A stretch of 64,000 nucleotides of DNA, taken from contig CAWDDT010000005.1 of NCBI GenBank assembly GCA_963801165.1, forward strand, positions 352,001 to 416,000, written 5' to 3'. Source of the stretch: an uncultured bacterium (GTDB lineage Bacteria > Actinomycetota > Acidimicrobiia > Spongiisociales > UBA5794). Both the position numbers and the translations under genes were made by a program. This document shows, one piece after another, positions 937 through 13,346 of this stretch. Within the stretch, counting starts at the first letter, position 1; each line of letters starts with the position of its first letter. Below the pieces are notes generated by a model, which saw only the letters and a list, made by a program, of their open reading frames with translations, searched no databases and had not been told where the DNA came from.

Positions 937-1767
937 TCATTGCGGGCTCAGACTATGCGCTTCTCGTGTTGCGACGGCATCGCCGAGCGTCAAGGTCTCT
1001 CCTTGCCGGGCGACCACAGCCCAACCGGGGAGCGATCTCCCGATCTCATCGAGCTCGTCGTCTGTCCTGGCAGGGTCGTGGTGGAAGACGACGAGACGCC
1101 TGACTTCCATCGACGCGGCGAGCCGGACCGCACGCTCGACTGTCGTGTGGCCGAGGTACGCGGTCGTCGGGAATTCTGCGTCGCGATGCTGCCCGTCATG
1201 AATAAGCAGGTCAACGCCGCGGCACAGCTCGCCGACTTCCCGGGTCGGCGAGCTGTCGAAGGCGTGATCGGGCAAATACGCGATCGCCTGCCCGTCGGCC
1301 TCAACGCGGTAACCGAGCGTGAGCCCTCCCTTGTGCGGCACGGGCAGCGCCAGTATCTCGAAACCCTCGCGGCGACACAGTCTCTCTCTTGCCTCGAACT
1401 CCCACGCGCCGCGGAGACCTCCCGGTCCGATAGGGAAATGGGGTGGCCCGAGGATTTGCCGTAGAACGCTGCGGACCGGGATACCCTCGGTCGGTGCTAC
1501 CAGGGTCACCCGGGCCTCAGGGTGGTCGAGCTGGGTAGCAAACGGGATCCCATGGGTGTGGTCCCAATGCCAATGGGTCAGCAGCACCGTACCGTGGAAC
1601 GGGCGGCTTCTCTCGAGGTTGCGTAGACCCGTGCCGGCGTCGAGCAGCAGCGATGGTTCTTCCCCGTCGCGAGCGATCGCGACCGCCGCGGTATCACCGC
1701 CGTAGCGACTGAACGCGGCCCCCGTCGCCGGGAATGAGCCCCGGCAACCGAGAAGACCGACCTTCAT
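937..1767 (-). CDS. MBL-fold metallo-hydrolase (phosphodiesterase-like)
   Basis: Start MKVGLLGCRGSFP (ATG overlaps the upstream TGA); YGGDT, LDAGTG, THWHWDH, DGQ, GHT and FHHDP metal-binding motifs. Confidence 0.85.
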   Translation of the reverse strand: MKVGLLGCRGSFPATGAAFSRYGGDTAAVAIARDGEEPSLLLDAGTGLRNLERSRPFHGTVLLTHWHWDHTHGIPFATQLDHPEARVTLVAPTEGIPVRSVLRQILGPPHFPIGPGGLRGAWEFEARERLCRREGFEILALPVPHKGGLTLGYRVEADGQAIAYLPDHAFDSSPTREVGELCRGVDLLIHDGQHRDAEFPTTAYLGHTTVERAVRLAASMEVRRLVVFHHDPARTDDELDEIGRSLPGWAVVARQGETLTLGDAVATREAHSLSPQ

Positions 1768-2747
1768 GGGTGTTCCCGGTGGTGACCGGCAGCCACATGG
1801 CCCAATGCCTCCGGATCGAGGCGGCCCGGTCTTGCCACCGCCACCTTGACCTCCGTGGTGGCTCGGACCGTCGAGGTACGGAACCCTCTCTCGAGCGCTG
1901 CCCGCTCGCCGATGATTGCTCCCGGAGCGACTGCACCCACCACCACCCCGTCGACGGACACGTCGACCATCCCGTCGAGCAGCAAGAACACCTCGTCGGC
2001 CCGCTCGCCCTGGGTCGTCAATGCCGTGCCCGCAGGATGGGTTCTGATCTCGCACCCGCCGCTCATTATCTCGACCGAAAGCCCGCGTTCAACCGCCGTC
2101 TCGACGCCACCCACCAGCACCGGCCGATCACCCCCGCCCCACGGGGTGTGCTCGTTGTTGGTACCGGACCATGCGGAGAAGTCGATGAGCCCGCTTTTGG
2201 CAACCAACTCGCCCACCTCGTCGTAGACCCAATGCCGGGGGAACGGGGAGGCCCCAACGATCTCGTGGCTCACTGCACCATCGCGTCCGATGGTCAACGC
2301 CAGAGTCGTCCATGCGGTGGGAGCGATGATCCTGAGAAATGGCGCCTCGCTGGACCGGCGAGGAAACGGCGCTCCGGTGCGTCCACCGGCGGACTGGACG
2401 AAGCGAACACCGTTTGGTGTGATCTCGGGCTCGGCCCGCAGATCGGGGAAAGCAGTGGCCTTGACGGTCAACGCCACCGGACCGACCTTCAGCTTGGTCA
2501 CACCGATGATCCCTCCTCCGGTGTAGCCGGCGTCGCTGACCCGATCGCCATCCATCTCGACGTATGCGGACAAGCGGTTGGCGAAGCGGAAGCGGTCGGT
2601 TCGAGCCAGCTCGTCGAGATCGGTCAATCGTGCCGGTGGTGCCTCGTCGTAGTGGCCGATACCGATGTCCATGGGGATCCGCATCGGACCGCTCACGGCC
2701 TCAGACGGGATCCACGAGATCGTGGTAACCGATGCCTCGTATCTCAT
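1764..2747 (-). CDS. Cyclic nucleotide-binding domain protein with an uncharacterised N-terminal domain
   Basis: Start MRYEASVTTISWIPSEA with GGAGG RBS; C-terminal CNB domain QGERADEVFLLLDG...GAIIGERAALERGFRTSTVRA (GE..R phosphate-binding cassette). Confidence 0.85.
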   Translation of the reverse strand: MRYEASVTTISWIPSEAVSGPMRIPMDIGIGHYDEAPPARLTDLDELARTDRFRFANRLSAYVEMDGDRVSDAGYTGGGIIGVTKLKVGPVALTVKATAFPDLRAEPEITPNGVRFVQSAGGRTGAPFPRRSSEAPFLRIIAPTAWTTLALTIGRDGAVSHEIVGASPFPRHWVYDEVGELVAKSGLIDFSAWSGTNNEHTPWGGGDRPVLVGGVETAVERGLSVEIMSGGCEIRTHPAGTALTTQGERADEVFLLLDGMVDVSVDGVVVGAVAPGAIIGERAALERGFRTSTVRATTEVKVAVARPGRLDPEALGHVAAGHHREHP

Positions 2748-2955
2748 TGCACCTCCAGATCCTCCTCCGATCGCAGTTCCTCGCGCGATCGCAATTCCTC
2801 CGGCGATCGTCGAGCACATGGCCCTTTGCCGTAACCGTGGTGGCCACAAGAGGAGGGTGTGGGATTCCTCACCATTCGATTCGAGGTGCCACGGTTCCCG
2901 CGCCCCGGCGGCGTCGGCATGGTGAGGAGGTGTCGAGTAGTCGAAGGAGGTTTTC

Positions 2956-3744
2956 ATGGCACATGCGATTGAAGCAACAGCCGAATCGTCGATCCGGTCC
3001 CTGGTCACGCGCATCGCCGCCGGATTGATCGCGATGTTGGTTCTGGTCGGTCTCGGGTCGGCACCTGCGCTCATCGCCGGGTTCACCGACAGATCGGACG
3101 TTCATGCGTTTCACGGGTTTGAGTGGGGTACGCTGGCGGGTGTTCTGTTCGGTGGTTCGCTGCTCATCGTCGCAGTGAGCGCCGACCACTCGCAGGCTGC
3201 CGTGCGGGCGGCGCTGGCAATCGGCGTCACCTTCCTGGTGGTGGCCGTACTGGCCCGGGTCGTAGGACCCGACACGTTGAGCCCGCTGGTGCTGGCAACT
3301 GTCGTCGCGCTGCTCGGCGGTCTTCCTCTTCTCGCCGGGAACTGGCGGCCCCGCTCGCTCCCCCTCGCTCTGATGTCGCTGGCAGCGTTCGTCGCAGGGG
3401 TGATCAACGCCGCTGTCGAGATCGGCTTCCAACTGGACCGTGTCGATGTGCACTCCGCCGAGCTCCACTACGCCGGCTCCGCTGTGGTCCTTCTGGCCAT
3501 CCCCATCGTCGCATACATCGTGGCGACTCTGCCTGACGGCTACCGGCCGGTGACGTGGCTGGTCGGCTCTGCGGCGACCCTGCTTGGTCTGGGATCGTTG
3601 CTGATCCAGCGCACCGGTGCTTTTGCGGCACTACCTGCCGTGCTCATGATCGTGTGGGGGGTGGCGTTCGTCGCCATCGCCCACTCCGTGCATACGAACG
3701 CCGCGGCCGCTGCCGCCGGCTGGGGGGAGTCCCACAATGCATGA
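2956..3744 (+). CDS. Hypothetical integral membrane protein
   Basis: AAGGAGG RBS; about 8 TM segments; His-containing loops (DVHAFHG, DVHSAELH); overlaps the next gene. Confidence 0.75.
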   Translation: MAHAIEATAESSIRSLVTRIAAGLIAMLVLVGLGSAPALIAGFTDRSDVHAFHGFEWGTLAGVLFGGSLLIVAVSADHSQAAVRAALAIGVTFLVVAVLARVVGPDTLSPLVLATVVALLGGLPLLAGNWRPRSLPLALMSLAAFVAGVINAAVEIGFQLDRVDVHSAELHYAGSAVVLLAIPIVAYIVATLPDGYRPVTWLVGSAATLLGLGSLLIQRTGAFAALPAVLMIVWGVAFVAIAHSVHTNAAAAAAGWGESHNA

Positions 3745-4186
3745 ATTGCTCGTAGTCATCCACGTAATCGCCGCCATGGCGTGGGTCGGTGGAGGTCTTT
3801 ACTCGACGGTGATGTCACAGAAGGCGCTCAGCACCGGTGAGGGATTCGACTTTGTCGCCGCCCAAGCAGAACGCGCTGGTACTCGTCTATTCGCCCCGGC
3901 TTCCGTCCTGGTATTGCTGAGCGGGATCTCGATCGTGCTCACCACCGAATCGTGGCGATTCGGGCAGACATTTGTATGGTCCAGCCTCATACTCGCCGCC
4001 GTTTCATTCATCATCGGAGGCGCGTTCTACGGCCCCACCTGGAAGAAAGTCCGCCATCTCCAGCTCGAGAAGCCCGATAGCCCACAGCTCGTGGCGCTGC
4101 GCCGTCGGGTCATGAGCGTGACCCGGCTCGACACGGCGATCCTGGTCACCGTCGTCGTGCTGATGGTGACCAAGCCGGGGCTGTGA
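3737..4186 (+). CDS. DUF2269-like 4-TM membrane protein
   Basis: IHVIAAMAWVGG N-terminal motif and LMVTKP C-terminus. Confidence 0.75.
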   Translation: MHELLVVIHVIAAMAWVGGGLYSTVMSQKALSTGEGFDFVAAQAERAGTRLFAPASVLVLLSGISIVLTTESWRFGQTFVWSSLILAAVSFIIGGAFYGPTWKKVRHLQLEKPDSPQLVALRRRVMSVTRLDTAILVTVVVLMVTKPGL

Positions 4187-5499
4187 CCATGACCGAGTCG
4201 ATCTCCGTGTTCCTCGCCGACGACAATCTCCTCGTCAGAGAAGGCGTGAGGACGCTGATCGACATGGCTGGAGACTTCGAGATCGTCGGCATGGCCGGTG
4301 ACTTCGACGACCTCGTCGCCGGGGCTACCGCGACCGCGCCGCAGGTGGTGGTGACCGACATCCGTATGCCACCGGACTTCCGGCGGGAGGGCATCGAGGC
4401 GGCCAAGCTGATCCGCAGGCTGCATCCGGGAACCGGGGTCGTCGTGCTCAGCCAGTACGACGACCCCGAGTATGCCGTTTCTCTCCTCTCCGAGGGTGCC
4501 GCCGGTTATGCCTACCTGCTCAAGGACCGCGTTGCCGAGGGGGACCAACTCGCCCGCGCCATCCGTGAGGTGGCAGCGGGGGGATCACTTATCGACCCCA
4601 CCATCGTTGCCGCGCTCACCCGACCGGTGCAACCTGCTGCCGGGCTGGATCCGGAGAGCGAGCGTCTGCTCCATCTGATTGCCGAGGGCACCCCGGTGAA
4701 GGCGATCGCTCTCGCCATCGGCGCTCCCCCGGCCGATGTGGACCGTCGCATCGAGAAGCTGTTCGTGAGTCTGGCCGAGGATGTCTCCACGGGAAGCCTC
4801 GCCGCCATCGACCGTCTCAAGCTTCTCCACCGCGCCATCGTCGACCGAAAGGAGCAGGGCGAAGTGCTGTCGCGGTTGCTGCCAGGCGGTTTGGCGGACA
4901 AACTACGCAACGAGGGAAGAGCCATCGGCGAGACGGAGGAACTGGAGGTGACGGTGCTGATGTCCGACGTACGGGGATACACCACCATCGCCGAGCGCAC
5001 CCACCCCACCGTTCTCGCCGGCCAGCTCAACCGGCATCGTGCCGAGATGAACCGGGCGATCCTCGATCATGGCGGCACCGTCATGCAGTTCGTTGGAGAC
5101 GCCGTGATGGGCGTGTTCGGCGCACCCGATTCGATCCCCGACCACGCCGATTGTGCCCTGGCGGCTGCCCATGCCATGCATGCGGGCCAGCGCTCGGTCA
5201 ACCAGAACTGGCAGGCTGAAGGCCTCGAGCCTTTCGGCCTCGGGATCGGGCTCTCCTCCGGGATGGTCGCCGCCGCGCTCCTCGGCTCCGAGGAGCGAGT
5301 CGAATACAGCGTTGTCGGCGACATCGTGAACCTGACCCAACGGCTGCAGCAATGGGCCGAGCCGGGAGAAACGGTCCTCAGTGAGCCGACCTGGCGTCTG
5401 CTCGCCGGCCGACCCGACGCCGATGAGCTGGAACCGGCCACCGTCAAGGGTCGAGCCGCACCGGTGCGCGCATTTCGGGTTCCCAGGAGGGCCCGATGA
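4183..5499 (+). CDS. Response regulator receiver - degenerate LuxR HTH - class III nucleotide cyclase fusion
   Basis: REC motifs LADD, VVVTDIRMPP, LSQY, YLLK; cyclase motifs MSDVRGYT, QFVGDAVM, YSVVGDIVNLTQRL. Confidence 0.9.
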   Translation: MTMTESISVFLADDNLLVREGVRTLIDMAGDFEIVGMAGDFDDLVAGATATAPQVVVTDIRMPPDFRREGIEAAKLIRRLHPGTGVVVLSQYDDPEYAVSLLSEGAAGYAYLLKDRVAEGDQLARAIREVAAGGSLIDPTIVAALTRPVQPAAGLDPESERLLHLIAEGTPVKAIALAIGAPPADVDRRIEKLFVSLAEDVSTGSLAAIDRLKLLHRAIVDRKEQGEVLSRLLPGGLADKLRNEGRAIGETEELEVTVLMSDVRGYTTIAERTHPTVLAGQLNRHRAEMNRAILDHGGTVMQFVGDAVMGVFGAPDSIPDHADCALAAAHAMHAGQRSVNQNWQAEGLEPFGLGIGLSSGMVAAALLGSEERVEYSVVGDIVNLTQRLQQWAEPGETVLSEPTWRLLAGRPDADELEPATVKGRAAPVRAFRVPRRAR

Positions 5500-7538
5500 T
5501 CGACAGACCTCGTGTCGCCGTAGCGCGGACCATGGCGGTCTTCAGCGTCGCCTCTGCAGCCGTAGGACTCGGCTGGCTGGTCGTCATCGGAGACGGCGGT
5601 GCGGCGTGGCACGACTGGATCGTCCACAGCGCGGTCGTCGCCATCTGCGCCGGCGTGATCACATGGCTCGTCGCCCCATCTCAGCCTCGCAACGGCGCCA
5701 TCTGGGTATTGGCATGGGCGGGTCTGCTCACCGGTTTCGAGACCCTCTCCTATGCCGTCGTGGTGGAATTACAACGGATACACGGGATAGGAGGTTCGGC
5801 CCTTGACCTCGTGCCGGCCGACGTTCCCGTCTCGATGGCGCTGGTCATGCAGCAGACGAACTGGCTCTGGATCGGGGTGCTGCTGACTCTGACGTTGCTC
5901 CCGCTGTTTCCCGATGGGCATCTGCCGTCTGCCAAGTGGCGACCCGTAGTGGCGGCGCAGCTCTTCCTCATTGGTATAACCTCGCTGGGTCTCTTCTGGG
6001 AGGCGCGACCGTCGGGAACATTCGCCCTGCGTCAGACTCAGGATCTCGCCGGTGGCTTCCGCAGCGTCTCTGCCGCCTTTGTGACACTCGGCTACCCGCT
6101 CATCTTCGCCGCCGGCATCGCCGGGGTACCAGCTCTGCTGGTTCGCTACCGACACAGCACTGCGGAGGAACGCCAGCAGTTCCGGTGGGTGGCCTGGGGC
6201 GCATCGTTTCTCGGAGTCTCGCTGGTCGTCGCTCTCCTCGGAGCTGAGGTAGCGGGCCGGCTCGATGTCGCCCTCATAGCCGCGGCGATTGCCCTGGCCG
6301 CCTTCCTTGCTTCCCTTGGCATCGCCATCGGCAGGTACAGGCTCTACGACGTCGACGTCCTCATCTCGCGGTCGTTCGTGTTCGGGACGCTGGCGCTTTT
6401 CATCACGGGCGCTTACGTCGGGGTCGTCGTCGGGGTGGGAGCACTGCTCAACCTGGATCAGTCCAGCGCGGGGCTCGAGATCGTGGCCACCGCCCTGGTG
6501 GCTATCGCGTTCCAGCCGCTGCGCCGCAGGCTGCAACGCATCGCAAACCGGATCGCGTTCGGGAAACGAGCCACTCCCTATGAGGTCCTCTCGGAGTTCT
6601 CCCGCAGAGTCGCCGCGGCAGACGAGACTGCGCTGGCCGACATAGCCAGATCGCTCGTGGAAGGGACCAGTGCCACCCAGGCCGCGGTGTGGGTGGGCCG
6701 GCCCGGGAACCGGCACGCCGCCGCCAGCTGGCCGGATGCGGCCGTCGCCGAGGTGACGCTGGAGCGACCCATAGTCCACGGCGGTGAGGAGCTCGGAGCG
6801 GTGACACTGACCGCGGCTCGCGGTCTCCGGCCGGGGCCGGCCGATGCGCAATTGCTCGAGGAGGTCGCCGCCGGACTGGGGCTGGTGCTGCGAAACCTCC
6901 GGTTGAGCGACACCCTGCAGGATCGGATCGACGAGCTTCGCGCCTCGCGGCGCCGTATTGTGGCCGTGCGCGATCAGACGAGGCGCACTCTGGAGCGGGA
7001 CCTCCACGACGGCGCTCAGCAGCAACTCGTCGCCATCAAGGTGAAGCTCGGGCTCGCTCGCCAGCTGGCGGCGAAATCAGGCGCCACCGAGACAGCACAG
7101 CTCGTCGAGTCCATCGCGGCCGGAACCAATGACGCCATCGATGCTATGCGCGACTTTGCTCGCGGCATCTATCCGCCCTTGCTCGAGGCGGAAGGGCTGG
7201 CGGCGGCCCTGTCGGCGCAGATCCGAAAGCTGCAGCTCGAGGTCTCTCTGGTGGCCGATGGTTTCGGACGCAGGCGCAGCGACGTCGAGTCGACGCTGTA
7301 CTTCTGCGCCGTCGACCTGCTGACGAGTGCCAGACAAGGTGGTGCTCAGGTCCAGTTGCGCCTCGTCGCCGACGGCGAGACGGCCGGCTTCGAGCTAACC
7401 CACCCCGATGGCATGTGGTGGAATGCGTCCACCCTGACCGATCTCGCCGACCGTATCGACGCCGCAGGAGGCTCTTTTCTCGTCGATCAGACAGGCACCG
7501 GTGCCGTCGAGGTTGCGATTCCGGAGGTGGTCGGATGA
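5496..7538 (+). CDS. Membrane sensor kinase, HisKA_3 type; H-box intact, ATPase domain degenerate
   Basis: About 10 TM segments, RYRLYD motif, GAF-like region, ERDLHDGAQQQL H-box; no recognisable N, G1 or G2 box. Confidence 0.85.
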   Translation: MIDRPRVAVARTMAVFSVASAAVGLGWLVVIGDGGAAWHDWIVHSAVVAICAGVITWLVAPSQPRNGAIWVLAWAGLLTGFETLSYAVVVELQRIHGIGGSALDLVPADVPVSMALVMQQTNWLWIGVLLTLTLLPLFPDGHLPSAKWRPVVAAQLFLIGITSLGLFWEARPSGTFALRQTQDLAGGFRSVSAAFVTLGYPLIFAAGIAGVPALLVRYRHSTAEERQQFRWVAWGASFLGVSLVVALLGAEVAGRLDVALIAAAIALAAFLASLGIAIGRYRLYDVDVLISRSFVFGTLALFITGAYVGVVVGVGALLNLDQSSAGLEIVATALVAIAFQPLRRRLQRIANRIAFGKRATPYEVLSEFSRRVAAADETALADIARSLVEGTSATQAAVWVGRPGNRHAAASWPDAAVAEVTLERPIVHGGEELGAVTLTAARGLRPGPADAQLLEEVAAGLGLVLRNLRLSDTLQDRIDELRASRRRIVAVRDQTRRTLERDLHDGAQQQLVAIKVKLGLARQLAAKSGATETAQLVESIAAGTNDAIDAMRDFARGIYPPLLEAEGLAAALSAQIRKLQLEVSLVADGFGRRRSDVESTLYFCAVDLLTSARQGGAQVQLRLVADGETAGFELTHPDGMWWNASTLTDLADRIDAAGGSFLVDQTGTGAVEVAIPEVVG

Positions 7539-9577
7539 AGCGCCTGACGTGGATCGCGACGGCCACCATCGTCATCGCCAGCGTTGCGGCCGGGCTTCTC
7601 TGGAGCGACGGGACCCCGCTGCGTTCGCCATGGATGCTGCCCGCGGCGACCATGACGATCGTCGGGGCAGTGCTCACGTCGAGGGTCCCGGGCAACCCCA
7701 TCGGTCCTCTGTGCCTGTGGTTCGGTCTCGGTGCCGGTGCCACCGCGATCGTTCCTTACAGCCTCCCCTTCTCGTCTGAGAATCAGGCAGCGTGGGCAGA
7801 AGGAATAGGTAGCCTCCTCAACACAGCCTTGGTCGTGCTCACTCTGATCCCCCTCGTGATGCGTTTCCCCGACGGCCATCTGCTCGACCGTCGCTGGCGC
7901 CATGTCGAGCGGGTTGCCGTGCTGGCCGCACTACTCGGTGGGATGGCCGCCCTGATCAACAACGGTTGGGGCGGAGCGCTCGATCAGGCCGTTCGCCAGT
8001 CACCATTGCGCCCGGCATTCGGCGGATTCGCCGACACGGTCGTACCGGTCTTCTATGCGATCCTGAGCCTTCTATTCGCCATCGCCGCTCTGGCCGTGGT
8101 TCTCCGTTTTCGCCGCGCCGACGGTGACGAGCGCGAGCAATTGCGATGGCTCATGTCTGCGGCGGTGATCCTGGTCGTGGCCATCGTCGTCGCCGGACTC
8201 GGCGGCGCCAGCTCGAATGTCGATGCACTCGTGGTAGGTGGGGCGATGTCCCTCGTGCCGGTCGCCATCGCAGTTGCGGTGTTGCGCTACCGGCTCTACG
8301 ACCTCGACCTCGTCATCTCACGCACCCTCCTGTTCGGAATGCTTGTCGTCTTCATCACCGGCGTGTACGCCATTGTCGTTGTCGGGTTGGGGTCGCTTGT
8401 CGGGGGACAGAGGAATCTCGTCCTCTCGATCGGCTCGACCGCTCTTGTGGCGGTTCTCTTCGAGCCGGTTCGCACCAGAACCCAGCGTTGGGCCAACCGG
8501 CTGGTCTTTGGGCGGAAGGCGACCCCATATGAGGTATTGGCCGACCTGACGACCCGGCTGGCCGCGGCCGAGTCATACGAGGGCCTGCTCGAACGGATGG
8601 CGGCGCGCCTGGCAGATGGCATTGGGGCGGCACGCGCAGCAGTCTGGGTCGCCGAGGATGGCGGCTACCGGGCTCTTGCCGCCCATCCGCCGCTTGCGAC
8701 ACGGGAGGTTCTCGCATCGACCATCCCGGGTTGGGTCGTACCGATAGAGCACGACGAAGACACCGTGGGCGTGCTCAGTGTCGAGACCCGGCGAGGCGAG
8801 ATGCTGAGCCCTACCGAGCGCCGCCTCACTGAGGATCTGGCCGGCTCGGCTGGACTCGTCCTCAACAAAGCGAGGCTCGATGCGGCACTGGCGGCAAGGG
8901 CCGCCGATCTGGCGGAGTCGCGACGCCGTCTCGTCGGGGCTGAGGACGCCGAGCGCCGCCACCACGAACAGATTCTCGAAGGCGGGGTGCAGCAGCAACT
9001 GGTCGCCATCAAGCTGCGGCTCGGGATGGCCTCCAGGACCGCGATCGAGGAAGGGGCCGATGCGGTCGGGCAACTACTTCAGGGGATAACCGGTGACGCG
9101 CAGGCCGCTATCGACCAGGTGCGAACGCTGGCCCGAGGCATCTTCCCCCCGCTGCTCGAGACCGAGGGCCTCCGGGCGGCGCTCATCGCGGCCATCGAGC
9201 AGGCTCCGGTCGAGGCTCGGGCCAACATCGACGATGTGGACAGGTTGCCCCGGGATATCGAGGGTGCCGTGTACTTCACCATGTTGGAGGCGATCACCAA
9301 CGCGGTCAAACACGCCGTCGGCCCGATCCACGTGGATCTTCATCGCCGCAAAGACGTTATCGAGTTTGCCGTGGCGGACACCGGCCCCGGTTTCGACCCC
9401 GCGCTCGCTTCGCCCGGTTCGGGCATGGCCAACCTCGCCGACCGGGTCGAGACCGCGGGAGGTGTGTTGCGCATCGAAGCCGCCCCGGGATCACCAACGG
9501 TGATCGCCGGGCGGATCCCCGTCGCCGAGACCACACATATCGCGGCGGCCTCGTACCAGGCCACGGCTCTTGAGTAG
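7535..9577 (+). CDS. Membrane sensor kinase, HisKA_3 type; ATPase intact, phospho-His replaced by Glu
   Basis: Start MKRLTW overlaps the upstream stop (ATGA); EQILEGGVQQQL at the H-box position; EAITNAVKHA, DTGPGF and GSGMANL boxes present. Confidence 0.85.
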   Translation: MKRLTWIATATIVIASVAAGLLWSDGTPLRSPWMLPAATMTIVGAVLTSRVPGNPIGPLCLWFGLGAGATAIVPYSLPFSSENQAAWAEGIGSLLNTALVVLTLIPLVMRFPDGHLLDRRWRHVERVAVLAALLGGMAALINNGWGGALDQAVRQSPLRPAFGGFADTVVPVFYAILSLLFAIAALAVVLRFRRADGDEREQLRWLMSAAVILVVAIVVAGLGGASSNVDALVVGGAMSLVPVAIAVAVLRYRLYDLDLVISRTLLFGMLVVFITGVYAIVVVGLGSLVGGQRNLVLSIGSTALVAVLFEPVRTRTQRWANRLVFGRKATPYEVLADLTTRLAAAESYEGLLERMAARLADGIGAARAAVWVAEDGGYRALAAHPPLATREVLASTIPGWVVPIEHDEDTVGVLSVETRRGEMLSPTERRLTEDLAGSAGLVLNKARLDAALAARAADLAESRRRLVGAEDAERRHHEQILEGGVQQQLVAIKLRLGMASRTAIEEGADAVGQLLQGITGDAQAAIDQVRTLARGIFPPLLETEGLRAALIAAIEQAPVEARANIDDVDRLPRDIEGAVYFTMLEAITNAVKHAVGPIHVDLHRRKDVIEFAVADTGPGFDPALASPGSGMANLADRVETAGGVLRIEAAPGSPTVIAGRIPVAETTHIAAASYQATALE

Positions 9578-9606: not shown

Positions 9607-10323
9607 ATGAGCACCCACGACAAGCACGTAGTAGCCGAAGAGCCCGCGACCGGGGCCAATGCCACCTCCGAGAGTGAGGAGATGTTCCTCATCACGGTGG
9701 CGCGGGCCATCGAAGACGGACATCCCAGCCCGGTGCCGGTTCCGCTCCTCGCCGACAAGCTGTCCATATCGCGGGTGTCGGCAAACGAGATGACCAAGAA
9801 GCTGGTTGGTAGGGGCTTTGTCGAGTACGAGCCCTATCGCGGGGTCACGCTCACCGCTACGGGAACCGCCGTAGCCAACCGGGTCCTGCGCCGCCGCAGG
9901 CTCTGGGCACTGTTTCTCGCCGAGCATCTTGGTCTGTCCCCTACGGCGGCCGACACCGTTGCCTGCGAGTTCGAGCACATCACGCCGGCGGAGGTAGCCA
10001 CCCGTCTTGCGGGCTTTCTCGGCGACCCTTCGGTCGATCCCGAAGGCAAACCGATACCGGCCGCCGGCAGCTCGATGGGCAACGGCCCGCTCGATCTGGC
10101 TCTTGCCGACCTCGGGGTGGGTCGTCAGAGCGTGGTCACCCGCATCGCCGCTGATTCGGCGATCCGCTCGTTTCTCGAGGATGAGGGAATAGCCGAAGGA
10201 ACCGTGATCACCCTCCTGGCCGTTGGCTCGGACCATGGTTGTCTGGTCGATGGCGGCAACGGCCACGTGCATATGTCGGCCGGGGTTGCAGCCCACGTGC
10301 TCGTCGCTCCGGTGGCCAACTGA
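9607..10323 (+). CDS. DtxR/MntR family metal-dependent regulator with C-terminal FeoA-like domain
   Basis: EEMFL, wHTH with SRVSANEM, YEPYRGVTLT, ACEFEH, DPEGKPIP. Confidence 0.88.
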   Translation: MSTHDKHVVAEEPATGANATSESEEMFLITVARAIEDGHPSPVPVPLLADKLSISRVSANEMTKKLVGRGFVEYEPYRGVTLTATGTAVANRVLRRRRLWALFLAEHLGLSPTAADTVACEFEHITPAEVATRLAGFLGDPSVDPEGKPIPAAGSSMGNGPLDLALADLGVGRQSVVTRIAADSAIRSFLEDEGIAEGTVITLLAVGSDHGCLVDGGNGHVHMSAGVAAHVLVAPVAN

Positions 10324-10331
10324 CCCTCGAC

Positions 10332-10371
10332 TTGACAACATCTCCACCCCGCCTAGATTAGGGCGCCTTAA
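10332..10371 (+). promoter_or_regulatory. Sigma70-type promoter (TTGACA-16-TAGATT) overlapped by a DtxR/MntR-like box TTAGGGCGCCTTAA
   Basis: TTGACA 10332-10337, TAGATT 10354-10359; near-palindrome at 10358-10371 resembling TTAGG-N4-CCTAA, upstream of efeU. Confidence 0.6.
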
Positions 10372-10407
10372 ACAATCGTGTAAGTGTGAGTTAATAACCG
10401 GGTAGGC

Positions 10408-11265
10408 ATGTTCTCCAACTTCCTGATCGGCCTCCGCGAAGGTCTCGAGGCGGTCCTCGTCGTCAGCATCCTGGTTGCGTACCTCGTCAAATCGGGCCGG
10501 GGCGACCAACTGACACGCGTCTGGACCGGAGCAGGTATCGCCGTCGCCGTTTCCCTCGCGACCGGCGCCCTCCTCACCTTCGGCCCGCGCGGTCTGACCT
10601 TCGAAGCCCAGGAGGCCATCGGTGGGTTTCTGTCGCTCCTTGCAGTCGGCTTCATCACGTGGATGATCTTCTGGATGGCCCGGACCGCCCGCAATCTGAA
10701 GGGCGAACTCGAGGAGCAAGCCGGCCTGGCCATCAGTGCCGGCAAATGGGGACTCGTGCTGGTGGCGGCACTGGCCGTCGGTAGGGAGGGTCTGGAGACT
10801 GCTCTGTTCCTATGGACCGCTACTAAGGCGGCGGGGTCCACGCTCGAACCCCTGGTGGGTGCTTTCTTCGGCCTGGCCACTGCGGTAATCCTCGGGCTGC
10901 TCATACACCGTGGTGCGGTGCGGATAGATCTGCGGCGGTTCTTCTCGGTAACCGGAGCCCTGCTGATCATCGTCGCTGCCGGTGTGCTGTCCTACGGGAT
11001 CCACGACCTGCAAGAAGCGGGAATACTCCCCGGTCTCGGTGCGGTGGCGTTCGATGTCTCTGGCGCGATTCCACCGTCGTCGTGGTACGGCACGCTGCTC
11101 AAGGGAACGATCAACTTCTCGCCCCGGTCCACATGGCTCGAGACGGTCACCTGGCTGGCCTACACCATCCCGGTGCTCACCGCATTCATCCGCAAGGTGC
11201 GCCCAACACGACCGGTGCCGGGACGATCTGCCGTGCCGGCGGCGACCTCAGGAGCCGCCCGATGA
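10408..11265 (+). CDS. efeU: FTR1-family iron permease (EfeU-like)
   Basis: Two REGLE motifs, about 7 TM, HDLQEAG. Confidence 0.9.
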   Translation: MFSNFLIGLREGLEAVLVVSILVAYLVKSGRGDQLTRVWTGAGIAVAVSLATGALLTFGPRGLTFEAQEAIGGFLSLLAVGFITWMIFWMARTARNLKGELEEQAGLAISAGKWGLVLVAALAVGREGLETALFLWTATKAAGSTLEPLVGAFFGLATAVILGLLIHRGAVRIDLRRFFSVTGALLIIVAAGVLSYGIHDLQEAGILPGLGAVAFDVSGAIPPSSWYGTLLKGTINFSPRSTWLETVTWLAYTIPVLTAFIRKVRPTRPVPGRSAVPAATSGAAR

Positions 11266-11642: not shown

Positions 11643-12008
11643 TCAGTCGAATATGAGGCTCCACGGGCCAAACTCGGCTTTCGACACAAAGCCGACCGCC
11701 CCGGCCTCGAGAGCGCGCGACTCGTACTCGGCGCTTTCATAAGTCGAGACCACGAGCACCGCAATATCGGGAAACTCGCTGACGATGCGTCTGGTTGCCT
11801 CGAGCCCGTCGATGCCGGGCAGGTTTATGTCCATCAGAACCAGGTCGGGGGCCGTAGCCGCGATCTTGTCGAGCGCCTCTTCAGCCGAGCCCGCCTCGCC
11901 GGCGAACTCAACTCCGTCCGCCAGCTCGACGACGAGTGCCGCCGCCTGACGGAAGGGAGCCTGGTCATCTACGATCAGGACTCGACGCACCTGCTGATCC
12001 AACTTCAT
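11643..12008 (-). CDS. Single-domain response regulator (receiver only)
   Basis: VLIVDD, LVLMDINLPGIDG, VSTY, FVSK; no output domain. Confidence 0.85.
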   Translation of the reverse strand: MKLDQQVRRVLIVDDQAPFRQAAALVVELADGVEFAGEAGSAEEALDKIAATAPDLVLMDINLPGIDGLEATRRIVSEFPDIAVLVVSTYESAEYESRALEAGAVGFVSKAEFGPWSLIFD

Positions 12009-12087
12009 ACCCCCATTGTCATCCAAGCCCGGCGGCTCACCAAGGGCACAGGCACCACACCGGCCGGTGTGGTTTTCCACACCGCTG

Positions 12088-12750
12088 TCACGTCGTCTCG
12101 CCCAGAAATAGAAGCACCGCCTTGACCCGCCGGTTGCCGTCGACGTTTGCTAGTAGATCGAGCTTGGTGAAGATCGAGTTGATGTGCTTCTCCACTGCCC
12201 GCTCCGAGAGGAATAGATCGGCGGCGATGCCGGCATTGGTGCCGCCGGCGGCGACGTGCTCGAGCACTTCCCGCTCCCGGCCCGTCAGCCGTTCCAACTT
12301 GGAACGGCGTCCGGCACTCCGTCCCGCCAGCAACGCGTCGACGACCTTCGGGTCGATCCTCGAACCACCAACCGCAACCCGCTCGATGGCGTCCACCAGC
12401 TCGTTCGCATCACCGAGGCGCTCCTTGAGCAGGTAGGCGAAACCGGAAGACCCGTCCTCCAGCAGGCGGATCGCATACTCCGGCTCGACGTACTGACTCA
12501 GCACGACAACACCGATGTCGGGGTGCAGAGCCCGAATCTCCCGCGCCGCCTTGATGCCCTCGTCGGTACGGCTCGGCGGCATCCTGATGTCGGTAACGAC
12601 AACGTCAGGATGGTGCATCTCGACCGCTTCCAGCAGCTCGTAGTAATTCTCGGCAGTAGCCAGCAGCTCGTACCCGGCGCTTTCCAGCACCAGCTTCTCC
12701 CCCTCGCGTACGATGTAGCTGTCTTCGGCGAGCACCAGCTTGAGACCCAT
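12088..12750 (-). CDS. NarL/LuxR family DNA-binding response regulator
   Basis: REC (VVVTDIRMPP) plus LuxR HTH LTGREREVL...AVEKHINSIFTKL. Confidence 0.93.
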   Translation of the reverse strand: MGLKLVLAEDSYIVREGEKLVLESAGYELLATAENYYELLEAVEMHHPDVVVTDIRMPPSRTDEGIKAAREIRALHPDIGVVVLSQYVEPEYAIRLLEDGSSGFAYLLKERLGDANELVDAIERVAVGGSRIDPKVVDALLAGRSAGRRSKLERLTGREREVLEHVAAGGTNAGIAADLFLSERAVEKHINSIFTKLDLLANVDGNRRVKAVLLFLGETT

Positions 12751-12815
12751 CAGGTCACACTACACAACGGGCGGTCCGCCCGAAGTGGTTAAGGGAGCGC
12801 CTAGTCTTGCTCGCC

Positions 12816-13346
12816 ATGGCCGTACACATCGCGCTACTACGCGGAATCAACGTCGGTGGCAAGAACCGGCTGGCGATGTCACTGCTGCGCACGATCGCCT
12901 CCGACCTCGGCTACACCGACGTTGTCACGTACATACAGAGCGGGAACATCGTGCTGACGAGCCGTGAGGCGAGCCGCACGGTCGCCGGGAAACTCGAAGG
13001 CGCCATTACCGCGACGACCGGTCTCGACGTCCCTGTGATTGCCCGTACGGCCGCGGAATGGTCCACGATGATGGCGGCGAACCCGTTTCCCGTCGCCGAC
13101 GGCAAGAAGCTGCACGTTGTGTTCCTGCCCGGTCCGGCGGGCGACGCATATAGCCGAATCGATTCAGCCGCCCACGGGCCCGAGGACTTCTCCGTCTCGG
13201 GCAGCCACGTCTTCCTGTGGCTCCCCAACGGGATCGGGCGCAGCAAGCTGGCGGCGGCGATCGGCAGGGCCGGTCAACCCGGTACGGCCCGCAACTGGAA
13301 CACCGTGGTGAAGCTGGCGCAGCTGAGCGGCGCCGAGCAACCGTAG
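12816..13346 (+). CDS. DUF1697 domain protein
   Basis: ALLRGINVGGKN, TYIQSGN, TARNWNTV motifs. Confidence 0.88.
   Translation: MAVHIALLRGINVGGKNRLAMSLLRTIASDLGYTDVVTYIQSGNIVLTSREASRTVAGKLEGAITATTGLDVPVIARTAAEWSTMMAANPFPVADGKKLHVVFLPGPAGDAYSRIDSAAHGPEDFSVSGSHVFLWLPNGIGRSKLAAAIGRAGQPGTARNWNTVVKLAQLSGAEQP

Follow-up and report, generated by a model that had tools for sequence, protein, structure and literature searches.

The stretch of DNA analysed here, a window of 64,000 nucleotides from an uncultured bacterium (Actinomycetota; Acidimicrobiia; Spongiisociales; UBA5794; GCA_963801165.1, contig CAWDDT010000005.1, positions 352,001 to 416,000 of the forward strand), probably carries one copy of a conserved cyclic-nucleotide circuit which is gated by a two-component system with a split kinase, HK1/HK2. 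Judging from their motifs, HK1 and HK2 appear to be a natural split kinase, each protein lacking the half-reaction that the other keeps. This pair with complementary losses is a new observation.

Two genes are read leftward: that of a 276-residue MBL-fold hydrolase (937–1767, minus strand; Pfam Lactamase_B_2) and that of a 327-residue CNB protein, the candidate cyclic-nucleotide receptor (1764–2747, minus strand; Pfam cNMP_binding, 49.2 bits), joined by an ATGA overlap at 1764–1767. A divergent intergenic control region of 208 bp (2748–2955) separates them from five plus-strand genes, which encode a membrane protein of 262 residues (2956–3744), a DUF2269 membrane protein of 149 residues (3737–4186; Pfam DUF2269, 35.6 bits), the REC-cyclase or candidate writer (4183–5499; Pfam Response_reg, 54.6 bits, and Guanylate_cyc, 72.4 bits), the membrane sensor kinase HK1 (5496–7538; Pfam HisKA_3, 44.7 bits) and its paralog HK2 (7535–9577; Pfam HATPase_c, 30.2 bits). 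The first two of these genes overlap by 8 bp and each following pair by 4 bp (ATGA between HK1 and HK2). Gene order, overlaps of 4–8 bp and divergent gap are as the first-pass annotation described them, and Pfam bears out all of its domain calls. Its description of the module as self-contained was overstated: the genome has five cyclase and seven CNB domains, and the conserved set extends to a stand-alone receiver protein (11643–12080, minus strand; Pfam Response_reg, 85.7 bits) and a NarL-type response regulator (12088–12750, minus strand; Pfam REC, 63.2 bits, and GerE, 49.7 bits).

The 208-bp gap contains three tandem 18-nt repeats (2756–2809) and a core (about 2828–2901) with the inverted repeat AACCGTG...CACGGTT; this core is conserved in the closest relative, locus L009. 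Among the 83 loci described below, L009 is also the only one with an ortholog of the 262-residue membrane protein, whose Mpo1-like Pfam match is under the cut-off (18.5 vs 24 bits). Orthologs of the DUF2269 protein are found in L009 and L036 only. These two membrane proteins are accessory and lie outside the conserved set.

The arrangement exceeds chance, since it is found again in related DNA and this genome has it twice. Among 83 loci seeded on the CNB gene, the REC-cyclase is present in 44, the MBL in 35 and both in 24. When the count is made on the 21 related CNB loci with adequate flank, the REC-cyclase lies within 4 kb of the CNB gene in 17, and the MBL is found in 10 and absent from 11. 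In cyclase-seeded loci the CNB gene is within 1.5 kb in 13 of 21 cases, and 19 of the 21 genomes with a close REC-cyclase (at least 55% identity) have the CNB protein. The two are uncoupled in some families: of the 22 genomes of family f27, 17 have the cyclase and none the CNB protein, and of the 21 genomes of family f19, 17 have the CNB protein and 1 the cyclase. The paralogous module of the same genome, on contig C1, comprises a CNB gene, a REC-cyclase at 70% identity, a NarL response regulator, a lone REC, an MBL and a histidine kinase. The module had first been read as the sensor, writer, reader and eraser of a second messenger; this reading is supported in part: the genes co-occur in other loci, with the reservation that the MBL is not in all of them.

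In the REC-cyclase, a NarL-type receiver is followed by a decayed segment resembling a LuxR HTH and by a class III nucleotidyl cyclase domain. Residues 7–197 are 42% identical to the sibling NarL regulator, through its HTH, and a Pfam search for GerE in the REC-cyclase gave no match. All catalytic residues of the cyclase and the phospho-site residues of the receiver are invariant in 29 orthologs (D13, D14, D59, S90, K114, D262, D306, N383 and R387). As far as motifs can tell, the protein joins a NarL-type regulator to a class III domain with a complete catalytic set. The cyclase domain aligns with CyaC (1wc0) and CyaB (3r5g) with E values of 1e-23 to 2e-28. Its best solved relative is 2w01, which we take to be the guanylyl cyclase Cya2 and which has Glu at the base-selecting site. 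PDB alignments place Gln302 of the REC-cyclase at this Lys/Glu site. This Gln is present in 29 of 29 orthologs, and the second base-selecting site is Thr in 20 and Ser in 9. With this Gln, more than one product of the cyclase is conceivable.

Cyanobacterial CyaC and similar enzymes are receiver-regulated class III cyclases. Dictyostelium ACR is another, according to the accessible text of PMC3009899. As in these proteins, a REC domain would control a class III catalytic domain whose catalytic residues are complete, here on the evidence of the sequence. Unlike them, the receiver part is a whole NarL-type regulator in which the HTH has decayed into a linker, separate HisKA_3 kinases would serve the cyclase, and Gln replaces the base-selecting Lys. 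The Mycobacterium tuberculosis class III cyclase Rv0386 reportedly uses a Gln-Asn substrate pair (Castro et al., in 2005). It shares with the window cyclase the Gln at the adenine-selecting Lys position, but the partner residue is Asn in Rv0386 and Thr/Ser in the window enzyme, and Rv0386, which has no receiver, differs in domain architecture. A glutamine-asparagine pair with guanylyl side activity is mentioned in the available part of bioRxiv 10.1101/2024.03.06.583649.

The CNB protein is composed of an all-β N-domain (about residues 1–215) followed by a C-terminal CNB domain, and its AF2 model has a pLDDT of 87.2. The C-terminal part matches the CNB fold with Z 12–14 and its phosphate-binding cassette is intact: across 41 sequences G280, E281, R282, A283 and R290 do not vary and T291 hardly does. 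The protein is a predicted cyclic-nucleotide receptor. The 215-residue N-domain belongs to no known family; Pfam and PDB sequence searches gave zero matches, and its sole fold match is 3c5p_A (Z 12.0), a structure of unknown function.

The MBL-fold hydrolase matches Lactamase_B_2 (PF12706) with 77.5–78.7 bits, its AF2 model has a pLDDT of 90.9 and its metal ligands are intact (H65, H67, D69, H70, H145, D167, H207 and H229 are invariant in 26 orthologs). It had been proposed to be a typical class II phosphodiesterase, which does not agree with its sequence: PF02112 gave no match, and the protein has HWHWDH instead of HxHLDH. The full motif, THWHWDH, fits the pattern [T/S]HxHxDH, in which Gly replaces T/S in some orthologs. 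The hydrolase is a candidate atypical class-II cNMP phosphodiesterase of the Rv1339/YhfI type. The accessible text of PMC9293780 describes this group (Rv1339, B. subtilis YhfI and C. glutamicum CpdA) as MBL-fold, PF12706 proteins of about 270 residues, with the [T/S]HxHxDH motif, shown to hydrolyse cAMP/cGMP; they are related to RNase Z, from which they might have evolved, and the window MBL also resembles RNase Z. Unlike the window MBL, which is only remotely similar to them in sequence and is operon-coupled to a CNB receptor, they are housekeeping enzymes. YhfI (6kns) is among the top fold matches (Foldseek E 3.9e-13, TM 0.69/0.77), with a phmmer E value of 0.25.

The MBL directly follows the CNB gene in 23 of the 76 loci whose downstream flank reaches 400 bp or more; it is a frequent, not universal, partner of the CNB/cyclase set. 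The genome has three MBL paralogs, each with a CNB gene and a class III cyclase as neighbours, the third (contig C6) adjoining a CNB-kinase and a cyclase. A flavin amine-oxidase-like gene is found next to or after the MBL/CNB pair in 13 of the 83 loci.

The NarL regulator at 12088–12750 is, by its sequence, a sibling of the receiver part of the REC-cyclase. A similar regulator occurs in 18 of the 83 CNB-seeded loci and adjoins the cyclase in 18 of 20 regions (L149–L168). The lone receiver recurs beside such a regulator in related loci and in the C1 module; short REC matches resembling it are seen in L001, L003, L011, L037, L042, L058 and L078. The NarL regulator is likely a second output of HK1/HK2.

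HK1 is a membrane sensor with a GAF-like region and a HisKA_3 domain in which both the DxxxQ motif and His504, the phospho-acceptor, are retained. The ATP-binding domain of HK1 has decayed: the N-box Asn and G1 are lost, the G2/ATP-lid stretch is shortened and lacks GxG, and Pfam finds no HATPase_c. HK2, which is 35% identical to HK1, has the reverse pattern, with Glu482 in place of the phospho-acceptor His, Gly in place of the phosphatase Asp, and intact N, G1 and G2 boxes. Positions 6900–9577 are also covered, at about 98% identity and with zero indels, by contigs from three further public runs (X3, X4 and X7); the reading frames of HK1 and HK2 are therefore not assembly artefacts. At 40 of the 54 strain-variant sites, the HK1 C-terminal region has 8 synonymous and 8 non-synonymous changes, and HK2 has 16 and 8. 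The HK1 counts fit relaxed constraint.

HK2 orthologs lack the His and keep N/G1/G2 in the three complete tandem pairs (3/3), and HK1 orthologs keep the His in 4 of 4. As to the ATPase motifs of HK1, L036 has them intact, L003 has an altered set (Ala for Glu in the N-box), and both the window and L009 have lost them. L009, the closest relative, is the only locus seen to share the reciprocal loss with the window. In most tandem kinase arrays next to a REC-cyclase, every copy keeps both functions. A model of the HK1–HK2 DHp/CA heterodimer scores 0.62, vs 0.04 for the best of 3 controls, its runs agree in at least 98% of contacts with partner pLDDT of at least 79, and it passes a mark which 116 of 157 solved complexes, and 2 of 215 mismatched pairs, also pass. 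This result may just reflect likeness to homodimers, because solved histidine-kinase homodimers exist, and the model cannot tell a heterodimer from homodimers.

The accessible part of PMC3591291 describes CheA3/CheA4, a split kinase from Rhodobacter sphaeroides, as well as split kinases predicted from HisKA-only proteins. There, as in HK1/HK2, one protein has the phosphorylatable His and the phosphatase function and the other the ATP-binding catalytic domain, and neither should autophosphorylate alone (for HK1/HK2, by motifs). In contrast to CheA3/CheA4, HK1 and HK2 are full-length paralogous transmembrane HisKA_3 sensors with their own sensor regions, and their losses come from point changes and a small deletion rather than from domain loss.

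HK2 could instead be a regulatory pseudokinase, which heterodimerises with or scaffolds HK1 and tunes its phosphatase or phosphotransfer activity, as RetS does on GacS or DivL in Caulobacter, the receivers obtaining their phosphoryl group from another kinase or acetyl phosphate; we consider this possible, at rather long odds. DivL is reportedly a pseudo-histidine kinase. The His-bearing neighbour has a complete ATPase, and would need no HK2, in L036, L149, L152, L155 and L165; since the partner is a complete kinase elsewhere, HK2-type proteins may do something other than donate phosphoryl groups. The genome also holds other HisKA_3 kinases, which could supply the receivers. Pseudo-histidine kinases in networks are a recognised class (PMC12632262, in its accessible part) and RetS–GacS is an inhibitory kinase heterodimer (PMC12189002, likewise); HK2 resembles DivL and RetS as a His-less paralog inside a two-component pathway, with heterodimerisation through the DHp domain in those cases. 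However, the His-less state is frequent in the HK2 family, 35 of 121 sequences against 0.3% of HisKA_3 domains in general (PMC12632262). That these 35 retain the N, G1 and G2 boxes points to selection for ATP binding or catalysis, and the 7 His-less genes with visible genomic context are all in tandem with a His-bearing paralog (7/7), which in the window has no ATPase. By its motifs the HK1 of the window is unable to load itself, and translation of HK2 is coupled to that of HK1. HK2 is unlikely to act as a phosphatase because it lacks the Asp of DxxxQ.

As for the MBL, it is unlikely that its substrate is a different phosphodiester (a PhnP-type cyclic phosphate, an RNA 3' end, or a product or substrate of the CNB N-domain) and that other enzymes or export clear the cNMP. 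By fold and by profile the MBL is best matched by a PhnP-family diphosphatase and RNase Z, with ELAC1, YhfI and PhnP also among the best folds, and by fold it is equally near PhnP-family enzymes, RNase Z and PqqB. The profile search gives YhfI an E value of 0.00091, vs 2.8e-11 for RNase Z, and the score against NF041851 (NCBIfam "cyclic nucleotide-degrading phosphodiesterase") is far under the cut-off (41.6 vs 400 bits). About half of the well-flanked loci lack the MBL, and the amine-oxidase-like neighbour hints at a metabolic function. Yet the positions of all three paralogs, the stop-start overlap with the CNB gene, and PF12706 with [T/S]HxHxDH, as in the cAMP/cGMP-hydrolysing enzymes of the RNase Z-related group (PMC9293780, accessible text), speak for an eraser. 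An anti-phage cassette of the Pycsar kind, in which the cyclase would raise a nucleotide alarm and a CNB effector would kill the cell or arrest it, is very improbable. PADLOC gives domain-level matches to PycC (66.8 bits, cyclase domain) and PycTIR (37 bits, CNB domain), and among the fold matches of the MBL Apyc1 appears as a distant relative (ranks 41 and 49). These PADLOC matches span only the generic domains, however, and the MBL, HK1 and HK2 have none; a TIR or transmembrane effector domain is absent, a two-component system would govern the cyclase alongside a sibling transcription factor, and the cassette is chromosomal, duplicated and spread widely and vertically across families.

For the two-component-gated circuit with a split kinase, we infer the biochemical steps from the observed gene order, domains, motif states and conservation. 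The co-translated membrane sensors HK1 and HK2 would form one kinase, in which HK2 binds ATP and its catalytic domain passes the phosphoryl group to His504 of HK1. Since HK2 lacks the acceptor His and the ATP-binding domain of HK1 is dead, phosphorylation would occur in trans, most simply inside an HK1–HK2 heterodimer. Phosphorylated HK1 would then modify NarL-type receivers, the REC-cyclase foremost, and probably also the sibling NarL regulator and the lone REC (11643–12750). The phosphorylated receiver would dimerise and activate the class III cyclase, which would produce a 3',5'-cNMP, most probably cAMP, with the Gln at the base-selecting site leaving alternatives. The divergently transcribed CNB protein would bind this nucleotide and switch its own N-domain, and the MBL, translationally coupled to it, would hydrolyse the nucleotide and reset the circuit.

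The cassette is arranged on either side of a divergent gap of 208 bp (2748-2955). To its left, the reverse strand carries the gene of a cyclic-nucleotide receptor candidate of 327 aa (the CNB protein, 1764-2747) and that of an MBL-fold hydrolase of 276 aa (the MBL, 937-1767), which are joined by an ATGA stop-start overlap. To its right, five genes follow one another on the forward strand: a membrane protein of 262 aa (2956-3744), a DUF2269 protein (3737-4186), whose gene overlaps the preceding one by 8 bp, and the REC-cyclase (4183-5499), the kinase HK1 (5496-7538) and the kinase HK2 (7535-9577), each with a 4-bp overlap with the gene before it. The ORF map and the sequence agree with the gene models, the overlaps and the gap described in the first-pass annotation, and Pfam upheld every domain that it had called.

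The gap itself has two distinct elements. Directly upstream of the CNB start codon, three 18-nt repeats lie head to tail (2756-2809: CAGATCCTCCTCCGATCG and two 78% copies), each with a terminal palindrome CGATCG; they are missing in the closest relative, L009. Further on, an intergenic core, some 70 nt long (2828-2901), contains the inverted repeat AACCGTG...CACGGTT with an inner CCACA...TGTGG. This core is much better kept in L009 than its flanks and is a candidate for a shared operator or promoter. A shared motif was also sought in 80 CNB upstream regions, where the top 8-mers turned out to be coding sequence of the divergent cyclase. The sole Rfam match in 2600-3100, CcsR1, was discarded (21.1 bits for a gathering threshold of 65.3). 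Both small membrane proteins (2956-3744 and 3737-4186) have orthologs in the nearest relatives only. The one encoded at 2956-3744 gives an Mpo1-like match below threshold (18.5 bits).

The proposed circuit runs from HK1 and HK2 through the REC-cyclase and its nucleotide to the CNB protein, with the MBL as candidate eraser. The first-pass annotation suggested checking it by gene co-occurrence across Actinomycetota, and the genes do recur together. A set of 83 loci was seeded with the CNB protein (3 from genomes and 80 from metagenomes, many of them on short contigs): an ortholog of the REC-cyclase (at least 58% identity) is found in 44/83, the MBL in 35/83 and both in 24/83. Where at least 400 bp are available downstream (76 loci), the MBL is the next gene after the CNB gene, on the same strand, in 23. 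In the 21 well-flanked loci, which have at least 1.7 kb upstream and at least 3.2 kb downstream of the CNB gene, the cyclase lies within 4 kb in 17, the exceptions being L033, L045, L059 and L072, and the MBL lies within 7.4 kb in 10.

A second survey, which started from the cyclase, covered 401 genomes of the phylum. A full-length cyclase match (E <= 1e-60) occurs in 50 of them, 21 at 55% identity or more and 29 at 42-49%; the CNB protein (E <= 1e-30) occurs in 46, and 21 genomes have both. The CNB protein is present in 19 of the 21 close-cyclase genomes (all but G305 and G231 (69% completeness)), and its gene is at most 1.5 kb from the cyclase in 13 of the 21; these counts are given without statistics because related genomes are not independent. 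The tallies take in genomes flagged as unpublished (G148, G120, G239, G018, G226 and G048); without G148 and G120, the two values become 17/19 and 12/19. The coupling of cyclase and CNB protein depends on the clade: in one family of genomes (f27) the cyclase is present in 17/22 and this CNB protein in 0/22, and in another (f19) the CNB protein is present in 17/21, frequently as several copies, against 1/21 for the cyclase. Overall, conservation speaks strongly for the circuit reading. Each part of the cassette is of a known kind; their combination, the Gln-type cyclase, the N-terminal domain of the receptor and the reciprocal kinase pair are uncharacterised. A literature search, with subscription journals outside its scope, found no account of the cassette or of reciprocal kinase pairs.

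The REC-cyclase (438 aa) keeps the catalytic residues of a class III enzyme. It matches Guanylate_cyc (PF00211) with 72.4 bits for a gathering cut-off of 21.9, and the positions set by alignment to 2w01, 3r5g and 1wc0, namely the metal ligands D262 and D306 and the transition-state residues N383 and R387, are invariant in 29/29 orthologs. The residues that select the base are of another kind. Position 302 is Gln in all 29 orthologs, where CyaB (3r5g) and CyaC (1wc0) have Lys and the best match, 2w01, has Glu, and the second site is occupied by Thr (20 orthologs) or Ser (9). The Lys of adenylyl cyclases and the Glu of guanylyl cyclases are thus both absent, and the site corresponds to neither canonical pair (Lys-Asp/Thr or Glu-Cys/Gly); with Gln302 and a Thr/Ser partner, the product is therefore not readable from the sequence. 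We take Rv0386 to be a precedent for a Gln-bearing cyclase. An excerpt of a preprint ties a glutamine-asparagine pair to guanylyl side activity (bioRxiv 10.1101/2024.03.06.583649). We lean towards cAMP as the product; cGMP seems unlikely, and some other nucleotide unlikelier still.

The receiver domain of the same protein keeps D13, D14, D59, S90 and K114 in all 29 orthologs. Its matches to NarL-family NCBIfam models (e.g., MctR, 86 bits) are under the cut-off. Residues 7-197 share 42% identity with the NarL-type regulator encoded at 12088-12750, HTH included, and a Pfam search of residues 141-256 gave no GerE match at E up to 5.

The CNB protein combines a cyclic-nucleotide-binding domain with an N-terminal one of no known family. 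The former matches cNMP_binding (PF00027) with 49.2 bits for a cut-off of 27.5, and its fold resembles solved CNB domains with Z of 12-14; in the phosphate-binding cassette, G280, E281 and R290 are invariant and T291 nearly so in 41 sequences. In the predicted model (pLDDT 87.2), the first 215 residues fold into an all-beta domain. This domain has no Pfam match at E up to 5 and, as a single sequence, no PDB match; its profile gave only chance matches in the PDB (E 0.36 and 2.2), and Foldseek returned CNB matches only. Its sole fold match is 3c5p_A (Z 12.0, rmsd 3.6, 173 residues aligned), a structural-genomics protein (BAS0735) of unassigned function, on which a search found no literature. The profile of the domain nevertheless retrieves 1,435 representative clusters at E <= 1e-3, in which it stands alone, with one or two CNB domains, or once with CNB and an Mpo1-like domain. 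The last case is P0251, a single representative in which the receptor (N-domain and CNB) is fused to an Mpo1-like domain (48.4 bits); it has no BLASTP similarity to the membrane protein encoded at 2956-3744. An apparent CNB-MBL fusion of 622 aa, P0377, was set aside as a gene-calling or frameshift artefact, with its long Arg/Pro-rich stretches that look out of frame.

The first-pass annotation had proposed the MBL as a candidate phosphodiesterase on the ground that class II enzymes have this fold. The metal ligands are all invariant in 26 orthologs (pLDDT of the predicted model, 90.9). The protein is not a typical member of that class: PF02112 is absent, Lactamase_B_2, Lactamase_B and Lactamase_B_3 being the sole Pfam matches at E up to 5, and the motif reads HWHWDH instead of HxHLDH. 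It matches PF12706 with 78.7 bits, and the full motif is THWHWDH in the window; in orthologs it starts with T, S or G. An excerpt of Thomson et al. describes an atypical class-II group, related to RNase Z, with PF12706 and the motif [T/S]HxHxDH, in which Rv1339 hydrolyses 3',5'-cAMP, 3',5'-cGMP and 2',3'-cNMPs (PMC9293780). By its motifs, the MBL fits this description and is a candidate atypical class-II phosphodiesterase (Rv1339/YhfI/CpdA group). Fold and profile searches place it among RNase Z, ELAC1, PhnP-family enzymes, YhfI and 1zkp, with Apyc1 more distant. These fold matches do not separate substrates, and the NCBIfam model for cyclic-nucleotide-degrading phosphodiesterases (NF041851) gives 41.6 bits for a cut-off of 400; both points weaken a simple phosphodiesterase assignment.

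The two kinases are paralogs (35% identity) in which the losses are reciprocal. HK1 keeps the phospho-accepting position His504 and the DxxxQ phosphatase motif (LHDGAQQ); it has no HATPase_c match and has lost the N-box Asn, G1 and G2, with a shortened G2/ATP-lid stretch that shows as a gap relative to HK2. HK2 has Glu482 in place of His and Gly in place of Asp (LEGGVQQ), and its HisKA_3 match (23.3 bits) is under the cut-off of 24 bits; its N (EAITNAVKH), G1 (DTGPGF) and G2 (GSGM) boxes are intact. By motif criteria, neither protein is a complete HisKA_3 sensor kinase, and the His-bearing and ATP-binding functions would lie on separate polypeptides, as in a split kinase. The reading frames are real, because three other public runs, labelled as soil and salt-marsh metagenomes, yield contigs that span 6900-9577 with about 98% identity and zero insertions or deletions. 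Among the 40 of 54 variant sites listed for this stretch, none falls in the HK1 His codon (7005-7007) or in the HK2 Glu482 codon (8978-8980).

In complete tandem pairs, the HK2 orthologs lack the His in 3/3 cases (Glu, Glu, Asn) and the HK1 orthologs have it in 4/4. The ATPase part of HK1 varies more: it is degenerate in the window and in L009, has an altered N-box Glu in L003 and is intact in L036. A DHp-DHp dimer is predicted for HK1 (455-680) and HK2 (440-670) with a score of 0.62, the best of 3 controls giving 0.04; since solved kinase homodimers exist, this score may come from likeness to them and does not speak for specificity. The mark used for such models was reached by 116/157 solved complexes and 2/215 mismatched pairs. 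In the HK1-HK2 model, contacts agree to at least 98% and the partner pLDDT is at least 79.

His-less kinases are frequent in this family. The HK2-family set comprises 121 proteins, namely P0003, P0004 and the 119 matches listed out of 1,202 proteins at E <= 1e-40, and motif classes were assigned by simple patterns. His and ATPase motifs are intact in 78/121; among the matches listed, 35/121 lack the His and keep the ATPase motifs (Asn 13, Asp 12, Glu 4, Arg 3, Gln 3) and 6/121 keep the His with failing ATPase motifs. The other two fall outside these classes: P0153 carries Asn in place of both the His and the G1 Asp, and P0212 is misaligned, with a gap at the His column. In a recent survey of HisKA_3 domains, those without His amount to 0.3% (56/16,025; PMC12632262). 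Tandem arrays with His-less copies also occur in genomes G160, G398, G029 and G196. All seven His-less genes seen in context adjoin a His-bearing paralog on the same strand; six lie directly downstream of it and the seventh, in L165, is flanked by two His-bearing paralogs. In the kinase arrays beside the more distant cyclase clade, mostly both functions are found in each copy.

Such pairs may be understood in several ways. The nearest idea described so far covers the split kinase CheA3/CheA4 and HisKA-only split kinases that have been predicted (PMC3591291). In a split kinase, two different transmembrane/GAF sensors would pair, the catalytic domain of HK2 would phosphorylate the His of HK1 in trans, and kinase and phosphatase functions would be segregated on different subunits. 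The rival frame is that of inhibitory heterodimers of the RetS-GacS kind (PMC12189002) and of pseudo-histidine kinases (PMC12632262). For the cassette as a whole, the Pycsar anti-phage system, which pairs a stand-alone cyclase with a CNB effector bearing a TIR or transmembrane killing domain, was considered and rejected: PADLOC matches are confined to the cyclase and CNB domains, the N-domain belongs to no TIR or transmembrane family, and the cyclase carries a receiver.

The design is repeated elsewhere in the same genome. A paralogous module (L170) occupies positions 6909-16349 of contig C1. On one strand, an operon starts with a CNB gene (47% identity at the protein level) and continues with genes for an ABC ATPase, a MacB/FtsX permease and a HisKA_3 kinase; the divergent side holds a REC-cyclase (70%), a NarL regulator accompanied by a lone REC, and an MBL (45%). 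A third MBL paralog lies in a signalling cluster on contig C6 (286132-291914, L169), next to a CNB-HATPase_c protein without HisKA match, a cyclase-TPR protein and a flavoprotein in which REC is fused to a pyridine-nucleotide disulfide oxidoreductase. Thus, all three MBL paralogs found in this genome with the window MBL as query have genes of a CNB protein and of a class III cyclase beside them. The whole genome encodes 5 cyclase domains and 7 CNB domains, so the description of the module as self-contained in the first-pass annotation was too strong.

The surroundings of the cassette also recur in part. A NarL-type regulator and a lone receiver accompany the cyclase in related loci, and the window copies are at 11643-12750. 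Between HK2 and this pair lie a DtxR/IdeR-like iron-dependent repressor (9607-10323, Fe_dep_repress domains) and an FTR1 iron permease (10408-11265), which seem to have been inserted into the signalling set (9607-11265). The gene of a DUF1697 protein (12807-13346, 136.8 bits) and that of the NarL regulator are transcribed divergently. MacB-type permease and ATPase genes are near the cassette in 9/83 and 7/83 loci, respectively. In 13/83 loci, the gene immediately after the MBL or the CNB gene encodes a flavin amine-oxidase-like protein of about 480 aa (NAD_binding_8 / Amino_oxidase; L079:11848-13272, L037:7906-9360, L078:10968-12581 and 10 further loci); this gene is missing in the window. For the receptor, the protein may be a target or a partner.

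It is possible, if doubtful, that HK1 and HK2 form an obligate reciprocal split sensor kinase, a two-input gate that drives a Gln-type cyclase, which makes a nucleotide, possibly other than cAMP, for a new family of effector domains. If this is true, the His-less, ATPase-intact HisKA_3 paralogs of tandem arrays would be a general class of dedicated "ATP-donor" subunits. If HK1 and HK2 work as one enzyme, they would be the natural equivalent of classic experiments on complementation in trans, and the family-specific excess of His-less HisKA_3 domains (35/121 with the listed matches, compared to 0.3% generally) would have a function.

The cAMP signalling of Actinomycetota is known mainly from mycobacteria, corynebacteria and streptomycetes. 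In this cassette, Acidimicrobiia-like bacteria of soil and salt marsh have a compact and conserved circuit in which two-component input, writer, reader and probable eraser are found together; each step is therefore open to tests with purified proteins. The points of interest are the nucleotide made by a Gln-type class III cyclase and the role of the 215-residue N-terminal domain of the receptor.
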